IMG/VR virus record: IMGVR_UViG_3300031760_000006
Coordinates: 1-27,126 of that record
Origin: a virus
Lineage: Duplodnaviria > Heunggongvirae > Uroviricota > Caudoviricetes
Strand: one strand, 5' to 3'
Length of the DNA stretch: 27,126 nt
The notes beneath the pieces are model-generated. The model did no database searches. It had not been told where the DNA came from and saw nothing but the letters and a program-made list of their open reading frames with translations. Shown here in pieces: positions 4,202 through 23,500 of the stretch (the first letter of the stretch is position 1; each line of letters begins with the position of its first letter). The position numbers and the translations under genes were made by a program.

Positions 4202-5401
4202 ATGTCTTTTAATAATAATACTAAGTTGTTTGAAGGATATATTTATAAGATAGACAATAGTATTAATAATAAAATATATATTGGTCAAACTTCAAGCAAA
4301 ATAAATTTAAGATGGAATCAACACAAAAGTGCCGCAAAAACTAAAGTATATAGCCTACCCTTGTATAATGCTATGAATAAATATGGTATAGAAAAATTTT
4401 CTATTCATGTAATCGAAAAGTATTATGCGAATACAAAAGAGGACTTGTTGGATATTTTGAATGAAAAAGAGATTTATTATATATCAAAGTACAACACATT
4501 ACGTCCCAACGGGTACAATGTCAGTTCTGGCGGTGATAATCTTTCTCATTTAAATATTATTCCTGTTGATGCTTATTATGCCGATGGAACTTTATTTAAA
4601 AGATTTAGTTCTCAAATAGATGCTAAAGAGTATTTAAATCGTCCTTCTGCGTCTATATCTAAGTGTTGCAAAGGCAAAGCGTTTTCCGCAAGTGGATATG
4701 TGTGGAGGTATAAAGATGAACCGTTTGAAAAGTATAATATTAATGTAACTCAAGAGCAATTAGATAGGGATAATAATAAAATTCCCGTAGATGTCTATAC
4801 TTTGGAGGGCGTTTTTGTAGATAGTTATGATTGCATAAAGAAAGCGTTGGAAGGTTTGTGTAATCGGAGTGAGGGAACATCTTTTGTTAAAAAAGTATGT
4901 GATGGCATATATAATCAGGCTTATGGATATGTTTTTAGATATCTTGGAGAGCCTTTCGACAAGTACGAATACAAAACTAATGCCGTGTATAAACCAGTTG
5001 ATTTATACACGTTAAATGGTGATTTCATCGGTACATATCCTACCATTGCTCAAGCCGCCCGTGAAAATAATATTTCTAATCGTTCACATCTTTCTGACTG
5101 TTGTAACGGTAAACGAAAATATGTGGAAAATTTTGTTTGTAGATACACTGGAGAACCTTTTGATAAATATTTATTAGAAAGAAAGAAATCTGGAACGATT
5201 CCAAAAAAGGTGAACCAATATAGTTTGACGAATGAATATTTAAAAACTTATTGCTCTTCTAAAGACGCTTACAATGAAACAAAAGTTTATTTTACAAGCA
5301 TATTAAAAACTTGTAGGGGTACGCAGAAAACAGCTGGTGGATATAAATGGTTTTATGCTGATGACCCCAATCAACCTGATAGAACCAAAATAATATCTTA
5401 G
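4202..5401 (+). CDS. Free-standing GIY-YIG homing endonuclease with four NUMOD1-type repeats
   Basis: GYIYKI..N.IN.KIYIGQT, RWNQH, EKEIYYI and PNGYN motifs. Four repeats of pattern (P)V..Y...G.....(F/Y).S.......I..(C)C.G....A.GY.WRY. SD AGGAGG. Confidence 0.9.
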   Translation: MSFNNNTKLFEGYIYKIDNSINNKIYIGQTSSKINLRWNQHKSAAKTKVYSLPLYNAMNKYGIEKFSIHVIEKYYANTKEDLLDILNEKEIYYISKYNTLRPNGYNVSSGGDNLSHLNIIPVDAYYADGTLFKRFSSQIDAKEYLNRPSASISKCCKGKAFSASGYVWRYKDEPFEKYNINVTQEQLDRDNNKIPVDVYTLEGVFVDSYDCIKKALEGLCNRSEGTSFVKKVCDGIYNQAYGYVFRYLGEPFDKYEYKTNAVYKPVDLYTLNGDFIGTYPTIAQAARENNISNRSHLSDCCNGKRKYVENFVCRYTGEPFDKYLLERKKSGTIPKKVNQYSLTNEYLKTYCSSKDAYNETKVYFTSILKTCRGTQKTAGGYKWFYADDPNQPDRTKIIS

Positions 5402-7479: not shown

Positions 7480-8652
7480 ATGAGTAACGAGAAGAAATTT
7501 GTAGATATAGATTATCCTGAAATCGCAAAATTATTTAAATACCCAGAAGAGTCTCATGTTGGCTCTTTTTCTTCCAAAAAGGTTACCGTTGTTTGTCCGT
7601 ATTGTGGAAGAGAAAAGGAAATGGCCGTTTCCTCATTGGTTAAATTAGGTCATGTTACCTGTTCTTTTTGCAGTGACGGTTTTCCATATACTGAAAAATT
7701 GATGAGTAACATATTAACTCAATTAGGCATTGAGTTTGAATATCAATTTCAGCCAAATTGGGCAAAACCATATATTTACGATTATGCCTTTATACATAAC
7801 GGAGAAAAAATAATATTGGAGTTAGATGGCGGCATTGGACACGGAAGAAAAAACACGTTGGCTAAAAAATCTATAAAGCAAAGTTTATTAATCGACAATT
7901 TAAAAGACGATTTAGCAACAAAAAATGGGTATAGGATTTATAGAATCGATTGTGATTATGGTCACGATAGATTTGGATTTTTAAAGAACAAATATGAAGA
8001 TTTTTTGAAAACCATATTTGATACTTCTAAAATAAACTGGGAAACTGCAAATAAAAAAGCCTTAAACTCTAAGTTTTGGGAAGTTATAAATTACTATAAG
8101 AACACTAGTAAATATGTCGAGGATATTTCTGAATGTTTAAATATTAAACAAAGGACAGTAAAAAAGTATTTATATGAGGCAATGCAATATGGGTTTGTGG
8201 ATAAAAATTTAATAATTACACATAATCCATTTAAGAGTCTTCCAAAGCATATAAAGATTGTTGATGAATCGCATTTGTATCACAGAAAGGGTAACCCTGT
8301 ATTGTGTGCTGATGAAAATGTTGCTTTTGATTCAGTCGCAACCTTGGCAAATTATTATGGATACACTTTTGAAAATGTATTACATGCATTAAGGAAGTGC
8401 AATGGTTATTATAATTTTCATTTGTTTGTATTCTTGAAAGACCTCCCAGAGGATTATGACTTTGAAATGATTGATATTAATCTTAGTGATTATAATAAAT
8501 ATTCTAGAAAAAAGATTATTTATCAATATGATAAAAAAATGAATTTGGTTAAGTCTTATAAAGGTGTTGATGAAGTTTCTCAGAAATATAATATGTCGAA
8601 CATATATAATGCCATATACGAAAGGCGAGGAACCGCATTTGGCTATATATGA
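7480..8652 (+). CDS. Free-standing putative homing endonuclease: Zn ribbon, Vsr/DUF559-like PD-(D/E)xK nuclease and NUMOD1-type repeats
   Basis: CPYCG...CSFC, then EFEYQ...YDYAF...ILELDGGIGH...DNLKDDLATKNGYRIYRI, then C-terminal IYQYDKKMNLVKSY...AFGYI. Confidence 0.75.
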   Translation: MSNEKKFVDIDYPEIAKLFKYPEESHVGSFSSKKVTVVCPYCGREKEMAVSSLVKLGHVTCSFCSDGFPYTEKLMSNILTQLGIEFEYQFQPNWAKPYIYDYAFIHNGEKIILELDGGIGHGRKNTLAKKSIKQSLLIDNLKDDLATKNGYRIYRIDCDYGHDRFGFLKNKYEDFLKTIFDTSKINWETANKKALNSKFWEVINYYKNTSKYVEDISECLNIKQRTVKKYLYEAMQYGFVDKNLIITHNPFKSLPKHIKIVDESHLYHRKGNPVLCADENVAFDSVATLANYYGYTFENVLHALRKCNGYYNFHLFVFLKDLPEDYDFEMIDINLSDYNKYSRKKIIYQYDKKMNLVKSYKGVDEVSQKYNMSNIYNAIYERRGTAFGYI

Positions 8653-10372: not shown

Positions 10373-10645
10373 AAATTTTGCCAGTTTGTATAGAAATATA
10401 CAAATGTAATCGGGCAAAATCGGTGAAGGCTAAGTTATCATAATAATTGATGATATGCTAATACCGAGATAACCAATAAGATTGCGAAAGGCTTATTGGT
10501 ATTGTAGAGCGTAGAAGTTGAATAAATATAATACTTCCACGAGTGTCCGACACCCAAACATTTAGGATGTGGGTGAATATGTACGCCGAACTTATAGGAA
10601 ACTATAAGAACTAAGGGATAAAAAGCCTTTAGGATAACATAATTG
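10373..10645 (+). mobile_element. Group I intron without ORF (273 nt), sister of the terL intron
   Basis: P1 AUUGGU/GCCAGU with U.G at the splice site, terminal G10645. Long blocks identical to the terL intron. P7 GCGUA 10509-10513 / UACGC 10582-10586. Confidence 0.9.
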
Positions 10646-11656: not shown

Positions 11657-13091
11657 TGAGAGGTAAATTACCTCACGGTTCGCTATATTCGGAAACGGTA
11701 TAGTGTATTCCTTCGAATATGCTGGGACGCCCTTAGAGTCACAATACCGAAACAGAATAATGAAATATGTATAGATGGTATGGTTTGAGAAAAATGTGAA
11801 TTGGGCAATCAGCAGGGAAGTTGCGAATAGTGACACCCTCAACGACTGTGGATTGAAATATCCGTAGGGAGAAGTCTCCCGAAGTGAAGGACTCCTAAGT
11901 ACAACTTTGTTGTATATGGTGAATGATATAGTCTATGCTTGCGTGAAAGCGTAAGAAAATTTTATACGGTAATGATAACAAGACCAGACAGCGGGTAGCT
12001 CCCGTTTCATCGTAGCTCCTTAATGCGATGATTATGGTCTTTTTATATTTTTTTGTTTTTAAGGAGGAAACATTAGACATGTTATTTTCACAAAAAGATA
12101 AGAGACAAATTATAAAAATGTATAAAAGTCAAGAATCAATAGATTCAATAATTGCTTATTTTCAGTGCAAGGAAAAAGATATTCGAGTTATTCTGAAAGA
12201 AAATTATTTAGATAGGGCTAAAAATCAAAAGTTTTCTAAAGAATTAGAAAATAGAATAATTACTATGCATCAAAATAATAAACTTCATAAAGAAATAAGC
12301 GATGAATTATTAGTGTCAAGTAGTGGAATAAATAAAGTGTTAGATAGAAATAATATACCAAGAATGTCCGCAAGTATGCGGAATCGGAAATATGATAGAA
12401 ATTCATTTTATTTTGATAATATTGATACTCCCAATAAAGCTTATATTTTGGGGTTATTATATGCGGATGGTAATTTAAGCAGAGAAAATCAAATAATCAT
12501 TAGTTTGCAAGAAGAAGATGGATATATAATAAAACAAATTAAAAATGAATTAGGATATACTGGAAATATTTCCTATGTCGATTTAAAAAAGAAATCTCCT
12601 CAATGGAAAAATCAATATAGATTAGCTATTAACGATAGTCACATGGCAAAAGAATTGATGAACAAGGGACTGGTCTATACAAAAAGCTTGGTTCTTCAAT
12701 TTCCCGATTTCTTGAATAGCGAATTAATATCTCACTTTATTAGAGGTTATTATGATGGAGATGGAAATATTTGGTATGATAATAAACGAAATAAATGCCA
12801 AGTATCTATATGTGGCACCAATGAGGTGATGCAAGGTTTATCTATTATACTCACGAAATTAAATATTAAGCATAATATTTACTCTCCAAAACAGTGTAAA
12901 GGACGTAACACTTTTGTTTTAAGAACTTGTGGCAACAAATCAAGCTATGCCATTTTATCTTGGTTATATAAAGATGCTAACATGAAGATTTTAAGAAAAT
13001 ATAATTATTATTTAGATTTTTGTGAAAAATATAATAAAGTACCTGTATAAAATCTTATTTGAATTAACGACTCAAATAAGTAATGCAACAG
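11657..13091 (+). mobile_element. Group I intron (1,435 nt) carrying a LAGLIDADG homing endonuclease in P9
   Basis: P4 UGCUGG/UCAGCA, P7 GACUG 11844-11848 / UAGUC 11929-11933. Long-range stem 11959-11971 with 13040-13053 encloses the ORF. Terminal G13091 restores the frame after T11656. Confidence 0.88.
12079..13050 (+). CDS. Intron-encoded double-motif LAGLIDADG homing endonuclease with N-terminal HTH-like repeats (323 aa)
   Basis: AYILGLLYADG and SHFIRGYYDGDG motifs. SD AAGGAGG supports ATG 12079 rather than 12028. Confidence 0.92.
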   Translation: MLFSQKDKRQIIKMYKSQESIDSIIAYFQCKEKDIRVILKENYLDRAKNQKFSKELENRIITMHQNNKLHKEISDELLVSSSGINKVLDRNNIPRMSASMRNRKYDRNSFYFDNIDTPNKAYILGLLYADGNLSRENQIIISLQEEDGYIIKQIKNELGYTGNISYVDLKKKSPQWKNQYRLAINDSHMAKELMNKGLVYTKSLVLQFPDFLNSELISHFIRGYYDGDGNIWYDNKRNKCQVSICGTNEVMQGLSIILTKLNIKHNIYSPKQCKGRNTFVLRTCGNKSSYAILSWLYKDANMKILRKYNYYLDFCEKYNKVPV

Positions 13092-16224: not shown

Positions 16225-16251
16225 ATTCGAAAAAATGAAGGAGGAATAAAT

Positions 16252-16272
16252 ATGAGTTTTGCTCTTGGCGAT
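16252..16272 (+). CDS. Major tail (tube) protein, exon 1, MSFALGD (join 16252..16272,16605..16772,17129..17737; 265 aa)
   Basis: Strong SD AAGGAGG, ATG, 7 codons, then TAG at the intron start. Confidence 0.8.
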
Positions 16273-16604
16273 TAGCGAAATAGTCGCTTCATATAGTAAT
16301 ATATGTCGAAAAGTCGGTGAACACTTTGTGTGGTGTACAATTCACGTTTAGTGGCCATAGGAAATGATGGTTAAGAATTGTGCTAACAGGGAAACCCTAA
16401 GTGAATAAATTAATTCATATGGCAATCCTGTGCCAAGCTTAGATGGCGACATCTTTGAAGGTGCAACGACTAGGATATACCGACTCTCTGAGTTGATGAA
16501 ATCCGTACTCACATTTTATGTGGGGAAGTGCCGACCGTCCTAAAAATAGGATGATGATATAGTCTAACCCCTTTTAAATATTGCGAAAGCAAGGGTATTA
16601 AGTG
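16273..16604 (+). mobile_element. Group I intron without ORF (332 nt), first major tail intron
   Basis: P1 GGCGAU|UA...UAGUCGCU with U.G, P3 GUCGGU/GCCGAC, P7 GACUA 16468-16472 / UAGUC 16560-16564, terminal G16604. Confidence 0.9.
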
Positions 16605-16772
16605 GTTATCGTTGATAGAATTCAATTTGGATGGGCAGAGAAATTTGACGGAACTCCCATCTATGTTTTAACACAGCTTTCTGAGGGTTCTCTTGAGATT
16701 ACTGCTGAGTCTAAGGATGCCGTTGATAAAGATGGTACTTTGATTAAGAGATTCTGGCAAGGAAAGACGGGT
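16605..16772 (+). CDS. Major tail protein, exon 2 (VIVDRIQFGWAEK...IKRFWQGKTG, 56 aa), not in ORF track
   Basis: Open frame between the two introns, phase 0 on both sides, codon bias like the capsid gene. Confidence 0.85.
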
Positions 16773-17128
16773 AAATGAATTGCTCCCTCGCATAGTGATA
16801 TGCGTTGAATAAGTTAGTGAACACATAAATATGTGGTGTGTGACTCACGTTTAGTAATTATAGGAAATGATAATTAAGAGTCATGCTAACAGGGGAAGCC
16901 TAAGTCAGTTTAGCGTTGCTGATATGGTAATCCTGTGCCAAGCTTTAACTATTGTTAAAGAAGGTCAAACGACCATCCCATTGGTACTGAAATGTACTTT
17001 AGGAGTAGGGCTAGGTGAAATTCCTAGTGGGTGAGACCCCCTTAAATCGAAGTGCTAACTACCCTATTAAATAGGGTAAAGATATGGTCTATTCCCATCT
17101 AAATATTACGAAAGTAAGGGTATTAAAG
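16773..17128 (+). mobile_element. Group I intron without ORF (356 nt), second major tail intron, sister of the first
   Basis: P1 GGGU|AA...UUGCUC, P3 GUUAGU/GCUAAC, P7 GACCA 16971-16975 / UGGUC 17085-17089, terminal G17128. Confidence 0.9.
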
Positions 17129-17737
17129 ACATTCACAGCTACTAACGCTATGATTAACCTGTCCATGCTTGCTTCTAACTCTGGTGTAGATCCCGAGGTT
17201 GTTTCTGATGGAGTTATTAAGGCTACTGGAAACAATGGAACACTGAGAATGCCGAGAATTATTACTGTAAATTCTGGTCAGGAATATACTCTGACTGGTG
17301 TTCAGGAAGGTACTGTTAAGTGTGCTGTTCTGAATCCTAATGGTTCTATGGGTGACACAATGACAGCTGGTACTAATAGTACTGCTACAACCTATGTTCT
17401 TTCTGGAACAAGCTTTACTGCTCCTACAATTGCTGGAGCACAGTTTGTTGTTAAGTATGACAGAACTGTAGAGAACGGTGCTATCGTTCATAATAGTGCT
17501 GACAAGTTTCCAGCTACTATTCGCCTTATTCTTAAGTGTCTTGCCGTAGATCCTTGTGAGGCAGATACACTGAAGGCAATGTATTTAGAGCTGCCTAGCT
17601 TCCAGCCGAGTCCTGAGATTACTGTAGGTCTTCAGACAGACACTACTCTTGATTACAGTGGAGACCTTCAGGTTGATTATTGTTCAGCAAATAAGGCTCT
17701 TTACAATATTTACTGGTGTGATGATGACGAGGAGTAA
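17129..17737 (+). CDS. Major tail protein, exon 3 (TFTATNAMINL...YWCDDDEE*)
   Basis: T/G/A/V-rich beta protein with highly expressed codon usage, followed by a strong terminator, located upstream of the TMP. Confidence 0.8.
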   Translation, partial: TFTATNAMINLSMLASNSGVDPEVVSDGVIKATGNNGTLRMPRIITVNSGQEYTLTGVQEGTVKCAVLNPNGSMGDTMTAGTNSTATTYVLSGTSFTAPTIAGAQFVVKYDRTVENGAIVHNSADKFPATIRLILKCLAVDPCEADTLKAMYLELPSFQPSPEITVGLQTDTTLDYSGDLQVDYCSANKALYNIYWCDDDEE

Positions 17738-17784: not shown

Positions 17785-17820
17785 ACCCCTATCAAGGGTC
17801 AAATCTTGATAGGGGTTTTT
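17785..17820 (+). terminator. Intrinsic terminator after the major tail gene
   Basis: ACCCCTATCAAG-ggtcaaat-CTTGATAGGGGT-TTTT. Confidence 0.85.
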
Positions 17821-20538: not shown

Positions 20539-23500
20539 ATGGCTGCAAATGCTACTGTGCAATTAACTTTTGACCCTAATGAGCGTTCAATGAGAGTAGT
20601 TGCAAAAAAATATGACGATTTTATTAAAAGTCTTCAAGATAAAGGAAAAGTAAATATTGTTGCATATTTACAAGAAAATTATGATGAAGCTGTAACAAAA
20701 GGAATTGAATCAAAATATATAGATAAAATTAGTGGTTTAGGTAATTTTATTTATAAGAATAAAACTGGAATTCTTGAAGACGAAACAATGGGGTTAGAAG
20801 AAAAAATATATAAAATTATTGATTATGGCAAAAAAATGGAAACTTTGTCTTCTATACCTCAAAGAGATTTGGCAAATATGTCAACTTTTACTGGTAAGCA
20901 ACTTGATGAAGCTATTACTAAATATGAGAAGGTTTTAGATTTAAAAAACCAACTTGAAGAAAAAAAAACTGCGGGGCAAGAAAATGCCAGAAATATATTA
21001 AATGATTCTAAACTAAGCAAAAAAGATTTAAGTAACGAGGTTAGAAATAGTAATTTAAATTACACAAAACAAGGATTAACCAATAAAAAAATCGCAGAAC
21101 AATTATTGGGAGCTTGGGGACTTGAAATAAAATCTTCTGAAAAAGATTTACATTCTATACAAAGTAATCTTGGTGAATATGGTAGAACCATTGAATATTT
21201 TCAATCTTTACAAGAAAAATTACTTTCCCCGGATAAAATAACTACAAAACAACAAGCTGAATCGCAACTAAAAACTATACAACATATGCAAGATGCTTAT
21301 AACCAAATGTTTAAATTAGAAGGTAGTTTTAAAACAAGTTTACAATCTTCAGATGGTTCTGATTTTAAATTGGGTATAGAGCAACTGGGAATAAAAAATC
21401 CAAAAGAAGTTATTGGAAGTTATATAAATGCATATGTTAAGACGTTTACAAGTAGTTTAGAAAACCAATTTAATAAAGCACAAACAGATTTTAGTGCAAC
21501 TATTTCTAAAAGAGCTGCTCAACAAAAGAGCACTGCTGAAAAAGGAGAAAAAAGGGCGTTACAAAGAGAAGAATCAAGAAGAGAAAGAGGGCGTTCTAGT
21601 AAATCTTTTGAAGGTGGTACTGGGGGTACTGGAGGTACTGGACAAGCACTGAACAATCAAGATTTAGAAAATACAGAAAGAGAATTTAATAATACCGCTA
21701 CACAAACAGAAGGTGTAGTAACTGAGGAAGCAATAGAAAATGTTAATCAATACATTTCTTCTCTTGATTCTTGTATAAGCAAAATTAAAGAATTGATGAC
21801 TGTTTATAATGAACAAGGAGGAGACTTATCTGACCAAGAATGGGCAGAATTAGGAAAATATTATGAAGGAATAAATCGAATTGCTAAAGATGAGGGGATT
21901 TCTGAAAAAGAATTAAAAAATAAAATGTCTTCTGCTAAAATTCCTAGTCAATTAATAGATGATTTTTTCTTTTATGCGACTCCTAATGATATTGAGGATA
22001 TTATTGAAGATGAAAATGTTTTAAAGAATTTTCAAAAAGATATTAAATCAATTCAAACATCTAAAAGACCAGATACTAATGAGTTACAAAGTAAAGTTGA
22101 CCAAATAGCTTCTTTAATAGATGAATCTTTTAATTATGAACCTGACACTAAAGAATATATAGAAAATTTAGAAAAACAAGCAAGATTATATGGAGAAATA
22201 AAAGAAAAATTTGGTGAAGCTATTAAAGACCCTATGCTTGATATTAAATCAGAAGAAGATATAAAAGAATTAGAAAGTGTATTAGCGAGGTTAGAGTCTC
22301 AAAAAGAAAAATCTAAAAGCACTCAAAATAGCAATCAAAATCAAACATATGATAAAAAAGAATATGGAAATAACCAAGAATATTATGATAATAATCGTAG
22401 TACAGAAGAGTATTTTGATGAAACATCAATGGGAGATTTTGATGAAAAAGGCTTAAATAATTTAAAAGCTATTTTTTCACAAATTTCTTCTTTAATTTTA
22501 AATATAAACGAAACAATTTCTTCTACGGGTGATATAGATATATCTTCGAGTATGGAACAATTAAAAAAAAGTGTTTTAGATTTCCAAGATATATTTACAA
22601 CTATTGGCAATATGCCTTCTCCTGAAAATTTTGACTCTTTAATATCTACAATAAAACAAATTATCCAAGCTATCTCTGATTTATCTACTTCTTATGGTGG
22701 TAATCAATTTGCATCTGCTATGAAAAATTGGGAAGAAGCGGATGAGATTTTACGAGAATTTAGAAGAGGTTCAGGTTCAATAGGTTTAACTACAAATGTG
22801 GAAGAATTTGGCCCGTTAGAACGTGCGGCACTTGTAGATTCATTAACTGGAAAAATATCTAATACTCATGCTATTGGACATGATGGTTTTACAGAACAAA
22901 AAACTATAAGAAGATTACAAAAAGGAAAATCATATGATACTTTCTTACATTCTCATCCTGCTTTCGGACAAACGATAGCAGATGACACTTCAGGCACTTG
23001 GTATAAAGGAAAAGGAGCCGACCTTGCTTTTTCTCATGCAGATATATCTCTTTATCGTGATTTCTTAAAAGAGGGCTTTGTTAAAAAAATGATGGCAGAG
23101 TCTAAAGGAATGATACGAGAATTAGACCTTTCTTCGCTAGATAAAGATTCGTTAGATAAAATTGCTGATACATTTCTTGCACCATCAAAAAATTTTGATG
23201 GTGCAATTACTCGATTTGACGAGTATATGATGGAAGAAAAAGACAAATTGGTATCTTCTTTATACGATTCAAAAACAAAAACTTACGATTATGATTTACA
23301 AAGTAAAATTGCTACAGATTTTTTAATGCAAGCTATAAAAGAACACGGAACAATAAACGGAGAAAAAATAACTGACCCAACACAATTTATAAAAGATTAT
23401 TCAGTTGATAGTCTTCAAATAGACCAAAATGTTTTAGAACAAAATAAGCAAAATATATTATCTTCTATTGCTAATGTTAATGAAATTATGACTGGTTTAT

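Follow-up and report, generated by a model that had tools for sequence, protein, structure and literature searches.

Group I splicing consists of two transesterifications begun by free guanosine, and subgroup IA of these introns is defined by additional helices (P7.1/P7.2) that separate P7 from the 3′ strand of P3. The two-transesterification pathway is set out in PMC3984707, and PMC12350094 describes phage group I introns as favouring genes of nucleotide and DNA metabolism. A close known counterpart of the locus analysed here is orf142 of phage Twort, in which three group I introns occur and a 23-nt exon is skipped (Landthaler and Shub 1999, as reported in PMC10136302), and which was later shown to be a tail tube gene (PMC11878797). 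PMC10136302 ascribes skipping either to a hybrid ribozyme formed from two similar introns, or to a second intron that takes the first junction as its alternative 5′ site. A search of the openly available phage-intron literature gave no paper on the present phage group.

The window (the whole stretch of viral DNA analysed, 27,126 nt) comes from a virus record, G000, of 155 kb that is 91% complete. Sequencing runs containing the stretch are mainly from bovine gut, and a distant relative (46%) is located in a Lachnospiraceae bin, which may serve as a weak hint at the host. We conclude, with high confidence, that a tail-tube gene in this window is split by two ORF-less IA-type introns of different lineages, each likely self-splicing alone, such that the 265-aa tube would need double splicing. 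The gene is laid out as follows:

16240..16244, + strand: Shine-Dalgarno-like GGAGG, 7 nt ahead of the start codon at 16252 (read from sequence)
16252..16272, + strand: tail tube exon 1 (21 nt, 7 codons); matches the N-termini of intronless relatives, and a DNA allele joins 16272 to 16605
16273..16604, + strand: intron 1, an IA-type group I intron without an ORF (332 nt) that opens with TAG
16605..16772, + strand: tail tube exon 2 (168 nt, 56 codons), with about four predicted core β-strands
16773..17128, + strand: intron 2, ORF-less IA-type group I (356 nt), with an in-frame TGA as second codon
17129..17737, + strand: tail tube exon 3 (609 nt, 202 codons plus stop), phrog_2729 virion structural protein
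17785..17820, + strand: terminator-like hairpin followed by a T run (read from sequence)

Both introns lie in phase 0, are preceded by T and end in G when the coordinates are joined; the three joined exons encode 265 aa, a join that skips exon 2 encodes 209 aa, and translation of unspliced RNA ends after 7 codons (7 aa) at the TAG with which intron 1 starts. Exons 1 and 2 are missing from the 60-aa ORF list, as the sequence-only reading had remarked, and the ORF that is listed (17084–17737) begins at an ATG within intron 2. A search with exon 3 gave 233 proteins; of the 120 listed, the best 40 were aligned. A full N-terminus, gapless over both junctions, is present in 36 of these 40, intronless P0006, for one, having the same N-terminus as the window's protein, and exon 2 is identical at up to 55 of its 56 residues; in P0001, P0003, P0013 and P0018 (4/40) the N-terminus is absent or mis-called, as would be expected of gene callers working on intron-bearing alleles. 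The proposed exons of 7, 56 and 202 codons are thus borne out by gapless relatives together with near-identical DNA alleles that lack each intron at exactly these boundaries. Alignment of the joined protein to intronless tail proteins, whose failure the sequence-only reading had named as a refutation, is gapless at both junctions. The corrected annotation is that of an essential virion gene, which ORF callers truncate.

Sequencing runs provide the alleles. In DNA run X3, 16272 is joined to 16605 (2 differences over exon 2), and 16772 is joined to 17129 in X3, X6, and X7 (among 4 runs). Other contigs of X3 and X6 carry intron 2 with both junctions, most of intron 1 is present in X7 (continuing into exon 2), and intron 1 with its exon-2 junction is also found in runs from other studies (X22, X7); neither window intron is present in locus L130, at 94% amino-acid identity. 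Because DNA alleles with and without the intron exist, each intron is polymorphic for presence or absence, and its boundaries are those predicted. Among 4 runs, both joints are contained in RNA run X24 and the second joint only in RNA run X21. We rejected these joined RNA contigs as proof of splicing, since DNA runs show identical joined forms, and the X24 site-1 joint was not counted because its contig bears a 2-base insertion common to the intronless X3 DNA allele. All run data are contigs from 8 runs (of 24 listed), and contigs drop rare forms.

The ribozyme elements of the two introns map as follows:

16267–16288, + strand: intron 1 P1, U.G at the splice site, 6 contiguous pairs
16313–16318/16530–16535, + strand: intron 1 P3, motif in place
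16468–16472/16560–16564, + strand: intron 1 P7, motif in place
16473–16529, + strand: intron 1 extra helices, a folding 57-nt insert
From 16782, + strand: intron 2 guide sequence, P1 with U.G, 4 contiguous pairs
16813–16818/17054–17059, + strand: intron 2 P3, motif in place
16971–16975/17085–17089, + strand: intron 2 P7, motif in place
16976–17053, + strand: intron 2 extra helices, a folding 78-nt insert
16576 and 17101, + strand: shared 26-nt 3′ motif, one copy per intron

The two ORF-less introns claimed from sequence, with their P3, P7 and 3′-end motifs, are therefore all found at the named places, with compensatory changes in P3 and P7. The full RF00028 model of Rfam matches both, intron 1 at 52 bits (E 1.1e-10, above the 50-bit cut-off) and intron 2 at 45 bits (E 1.4e-8, below it). 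Over 7 aligned introns of the tail-tube gene family, P3 and P7 pair in 77/77 cells with 10 two-sided changes; none of 500 shuffles equals this covariation and slid registers pair 13–48%, controls that lean toward the proposed structure because it was derived from the same sequences. The Rfam match and covariation together place a P3–P9 core with the P3/P7 pseudoknot in both introns, and in both P1 has its U.G pair where the 5′ splice site lies, while cutting after the terminal G at the 3′ splice site restores the frame, matched by natural intronless alleles. The 57-nt and 78-nt inserts form hairpins at the position of the IA extra helices (z-scores of −2.0 and −0.5, which are weak, with some covariation), and the P10 pairings are weak (−4.6 kcal/mol for intron 1, −2.6 for intron 2). 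No intron-encoded homing endonuclease was found, the longest stop-free stretch in either intron being 55–56 aa. A weak preQ1-II match from the Rfam scan (E 0.29) was discarded, as it overlaps the last capsid exon. By the established group I pathway, free guanosine would attack at the U.G pair of P1, with exon ligation following at the terminal G; each intron would be spliced independently from the late transcript, and both removals would be needed for tail assembly.

A predicted structure and profile comparison identify the product as a siphophage tail tube, the nearest match being the tube of Bacillus phage SPR. A profile built from 108 intronless relatives matches two solved tail tube sequences (E 1e-4). 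The structure model of P0008, a relative rather than the window's own joined protein, has a mean pLDDT of 81.7 and, in a Foldseek search of the PDB, finds the SPR tail tube best (8xkn and 8ygm, E 2.5e-12 and 3.6e-12, TM 0.65–0.72), followed after the SPR chains by the tail proteins of YSD1, JBD30, and Chi. The fold check suggested in the sequence-only reading accordingly came out in favour of a tube β-sandwich, for this relative's model, and the profile search agrees. Gene order places terminase, portal, and putative capsid upstream and a tape measure gene downstream at 20539. A tblastn search with P0008 matched no cultured phage among 50,697 records, and a Pfam scan gave no family for the tube protein (its precomputed label is PF27173).

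The two introns had been taken for tandem sisters, a description that the comparison with their relatives does not support: they are 66% identical to each other, each has closer kin at other sites, and a single clade is rejected. Intron 2 shares 93% identity with its counterpart at the same site in L148, where the flanking exon DNA is only 80–82% identical (an excess of intron over exon identity that may also stem from RNA structure constraint), 86% identical to that of L008, and 73–76% identical to introns at codons 6 and 253. The closest kin of intron 1 are introns at codons 242 (72%) and 246 (70%). A tree of 22 rows (9 introns of tail-tube genes and 13 non-redundant relatives out of L097–L128), in which 4/19 inner branches are well supported, puts introns 1 and 2 on opposite sides of a 95/94 branch, and forcing intron 1 together with the codon-63 introns is rejected (AU test, p 0.00086). 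The 26-nt 3′ motif is a family trait. It has 11 matches in viral contigs, none of them in a tail-tube gene; inspection of the translations by eye assigns 6 to anaerobic ribonucleotide reductase, 2 to DNA polymerase III alpha, 1 to terminase and 2 to a capsid gene of giant-virus type. Two of these introns contain ORFs encoding LAGLIDADG proteins. As a separate observation, in L094 and L095 a major capsid gene of giant-virus type is interrupted by two group I introns in tandem, one of which has the 26-nt 3′ motif.

Across the tail-tube gene family we located nine intron sites, given here in window codon numbers:

After codon 6: L098, L148, L155
After codon 7: window (intron 1)
After codon 63: window (intron 2), L008/L135, L148
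After codon 213: L098, L179–L185, L187, L189–L192
After codon 238: run X6 only
Within codon 242: L054, L152, L167, L190/L191
After codon 242: L148, L155
After codon 246: L130, L152, L189/L193
After codon 253: L130, L133

Boundaries in L130 and L133 were read by eye, and L192 lacks a clean one. L148 has three introns, and micro-exons of 21 nt and about 14 nt occur in L130 and L152, respectively. The metagenome scan yielded at least 21 interrupted loci of 65 and showed no intron in 44/65 (a count that takes in L129, identical to the window, and both L191 and L193, which are one contig). The full-length viral scan, which favours intronless genes, yielded 2/80; three genome loci have a continuous tail-tube gene, and continuous loci total 116. 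The tail-tube alleles L191 and L193, at opposite ends of their shared contig, differ in having introns at codons 213 and 242 versus codon 246, which would reflect mixed strains or recombination.

The introns internal to codon 242 (L054:3207–3624, L167:3024–3435, L190:3385–3796, and L152 from about 610) form a case apart: P1 covariation places their U.G one base beyond the only frame-keeping cut, and canonical splicing would therefore shift the frame. Either the 5′ cut falls ahead of the U, or A is the last base of the intron.

Apart from the window and L129, which is identical to it, only sequencing runs show site 7; the 5′ junction pattern of intron 1 gave 0 matches in viral contigs. A further copy of intron 1 stands after the GAT of codon 238 in X6 contig 17 (735 nt, depth 4.5, a single contig), where it ends in G and the frame resumes; over about 320 nt, 16 substitutions and 23 gap positions set it apart from the window's copy. 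In the intron-1 lineage, GAT precedes each of the four tail-tube sites (7, 238, 242, 246), a context shared by only 19/254 T positions of the spliced gene, and sites 6, 63, and 253 of the intron-2 lineage are all preceded by GGT or AGT, in line with what the respective guide sequences require. Of six introns compared, four have a guide sequence whose best or joint-best pairing is with its own exon end; for the codon-63 intron and the L133 codon-253 intron, another site of the same lineage gains one Watson–Crick pair. This site pattern fits RNA-guided insertion and selection for splicable insertions equally, and therefore does not discriminate between routes. We regard it as unlikely, though worth stating, that group I introns without ORFs move from one site to another within a gene through an RNA intermediate (reverse splicing). 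The window's genome encodes a reverse transcriptase. Such hopping, if true, would be a recent natural case of reverse-splicing transposition, for which PMC3984707 (2014) states that direct evidence is lacking.

Our preferred account is that the introns are near-neutral mobile passengers and that a conserved essential gene acquired each of them independently. As neither encodes an endonuclease, they would likely spread by recombination or by co-conversion driven by neighbouring homing endonucleases, landing occasionally at a new site where the exon end suits the guide sequence. The codon-246 intron of L130 contains a LAGLIDADG gene, and the window also encodes GIY-YIG and LAGLIDADG genes. Nine sites in 265 codons, with close kin at different sites, provide a compact natural set on endonuclease-free intron spread.

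Three other introns in the window were settled by comparison with relatives, PHROG scans of the short outer exons being uninformative:

363–701, + strand: group I-like intron (339 nt), inserted at the Walker A motif of the large terminase subunit, which it splits; missed by Rfam
10373–10645, + strand: group I-like intron (273 nt), close to the 3′ end of the gene for the putative major capsid protein (9251 onward)
11657–13091, + strand: group I-like intron (1435 nt) carrying a LAGLIDADG ORF, splitting a phrog_3853 gene

The terminase join gives 690 aa and its junction is continuous in intronless L204; the 16-codon last exon of the putative capsid gene matches 5/5 relatives, and the capsid intron shares its type with the one in terminase and with those after codon 6 in L148 and L155. 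The phrog_3853 junction is continuous in L206, L207, and L208. L203 and L205 (G001) have apparent insertions at the window's terminase and phrog_3853 sites and a continuous tail tube gene.

Further elements were recorded in the window and its genome. A free-standing gene for a GIY-YIG/NUMOD endonuclease, located behind that for the portal (window 4202–5401, +), and a phrog_4538/HTH protein in the head module (window 7480–8652, +) are candidates for trans homing. A sixth intron, of the terminase/capsid type, lies at about 81055–81300 of G000:C1 (−) in a gene with, by eye, a dUTPase-like C-terminus, a 400-codon open frame sitting just upstream. A UG27-type reverse transcriptase (470 aa, PADLOC E 5e-131) is found at about 127050–129160 of G000:C1 (−) and at L211:290–2406, and next to it come about three repeat units that contain G+C-rich hairpins, on its downstream side.

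The window contains five introns across four morphogenesis genes, a concentration that invites the idea that they are retained to regulate tail assembly, two splicing steps serving to delay or gate tube synthesis (by GTP or growth state) and perhaps to limit free tube protein, which in the SPR system triggers DSR2-type defence. Introns as on-switches are discussed as a hypothesis in PMC11878797, and the closest solved fold is the SPR tube, reported to be the DSR2 trigger. We nonetheless consider such regulation improbable: most relatives are intronless (the 116 continuous loci, and the 44/65 of the metagenome scan), near-identical alleles differ in intron presence, and intron sites are scattered rather than conserved.

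Still less probable, to our minds highly so, is the proposal in the sequence-only reading that tandem duplicate introns act jointly to yield a regulated, exon 2-skipped isoform of 209 aa with a role in the tail. The in-frame 209-aa join stands as described, both introns being phase 0; a function for it is not supported. A hybrid of the two introns would pair in P7 (−5.4 kcal/mol) and the 3′ ends are nearly identical, but the hybrid P3 is mismatched (−2.8 versus −10.7 and −6.9 kcal/mol for each intron's own P3), and the P3 covariation that the earlier reading had pointed out thereby counts against a hybrid ribozyme. Intron 1 P10 pairs poorly with exon 3 (−1.4 versus −4.6 kcal/mol), and the intron 2 guide makes 1 pair with the end of exon 1 versus 4 with its own exon end. 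Three other U sites give this guide 4 pairs (one shortly before the final codons of exon 1, the remaining two within exon 2) and could, judging from pairing, be cryptic 5′ sites for intron 2; a P9.0 swap between the introns is possible, given the identical 3′ ends. Reported skipping of the 23-nt exon of Twort orf142 (PMC10136302), and in 47% of transcripts of the phage SIOphi polymerase, provides precedents; against these, engineered pairs are reported in PMC10136302 to lose nearly all skipping once splice-site elements are differentiated, and the present introns, 66% identical and not a single clade, differ from a Twort-type skipping pair in that identity, in the hybrid P3 mismatch, and in a 168-nt exon. 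Exon 2 also spans predicted strands 9–19, 25–30, 32–47, and most of 53–69, and the skipped spacing occurs in 0/56 homologues scorable by motif (of 120 listed proteins). The 16272/17129 skip joint was found in none of the 8 runs, which is weak evidence because all 8 were contigs, in which rare forms are dropped. A useful 209-aa isoform is thus unlikely here; trace skipping may occur, as a rare error that would yield an unfoldable protein.

That the introns are degenerate remnants or assembly artefacts, in a gene that is dead or starts inside intron 2, has in its favour the called ORF (17084–17737) and the fact that splicing was unobserved, but is scarcely tenable given intact and covarying ribozyme cores, the junctions recovered with intron 1 (X22, X7) and intron 2 (X3, X6), the near-full identity of exons 1 and 2 to intact relatives, and an ATG at 17084 without a ribosome-binding site.

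The reading of a tube gene split by two independently acquired introns can be set beside described systems. The parallel with Twort drawn in the sequence-only reading is a sound one, orf142 being a multi-intron tail tube gene with skipping (PMC10136302 and PMC11878797): both are tail tube genes broken by several IA-type group I introns. In Twort, however, two highly similar IA2 introns flank the skipped 23-nt exon, whereas those of the window are 66% identical, of separate lineages, 168 nt apart, and have P3 and guide sequences that are non-interchangeable, in a host gene with a siphophage SPR-like tube fold. The Bastillevirinae phages (PMC11878797) likewise have conserved core genes, terminase among them, that contain several IA-type introns each; their introns are reported in nucleotide/DNA metabolism genes and terminase, whereas those of the window are also found in tube, major capsid, and another morphogenesis-module gene. 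The SPR tube (PDB 8xkn, 8ygm, 8k98, 9jgh) agrees in fold (TM 0.65–0.72), in length (264 versus 265 aa), and in profile match, and differs in sequence, at about 15% identity. As for RF00028, the full model fits both tube introns, intron 2 under the gathering score, and misses the three other window introns. Multi-intron tail-tube genes were already known from Twort orf142; what is new here is nine sites in one gene family, which makes rumen siphophage tail-tube genes a group I intron hotspot beyond the usual DNA-metabolism targets.
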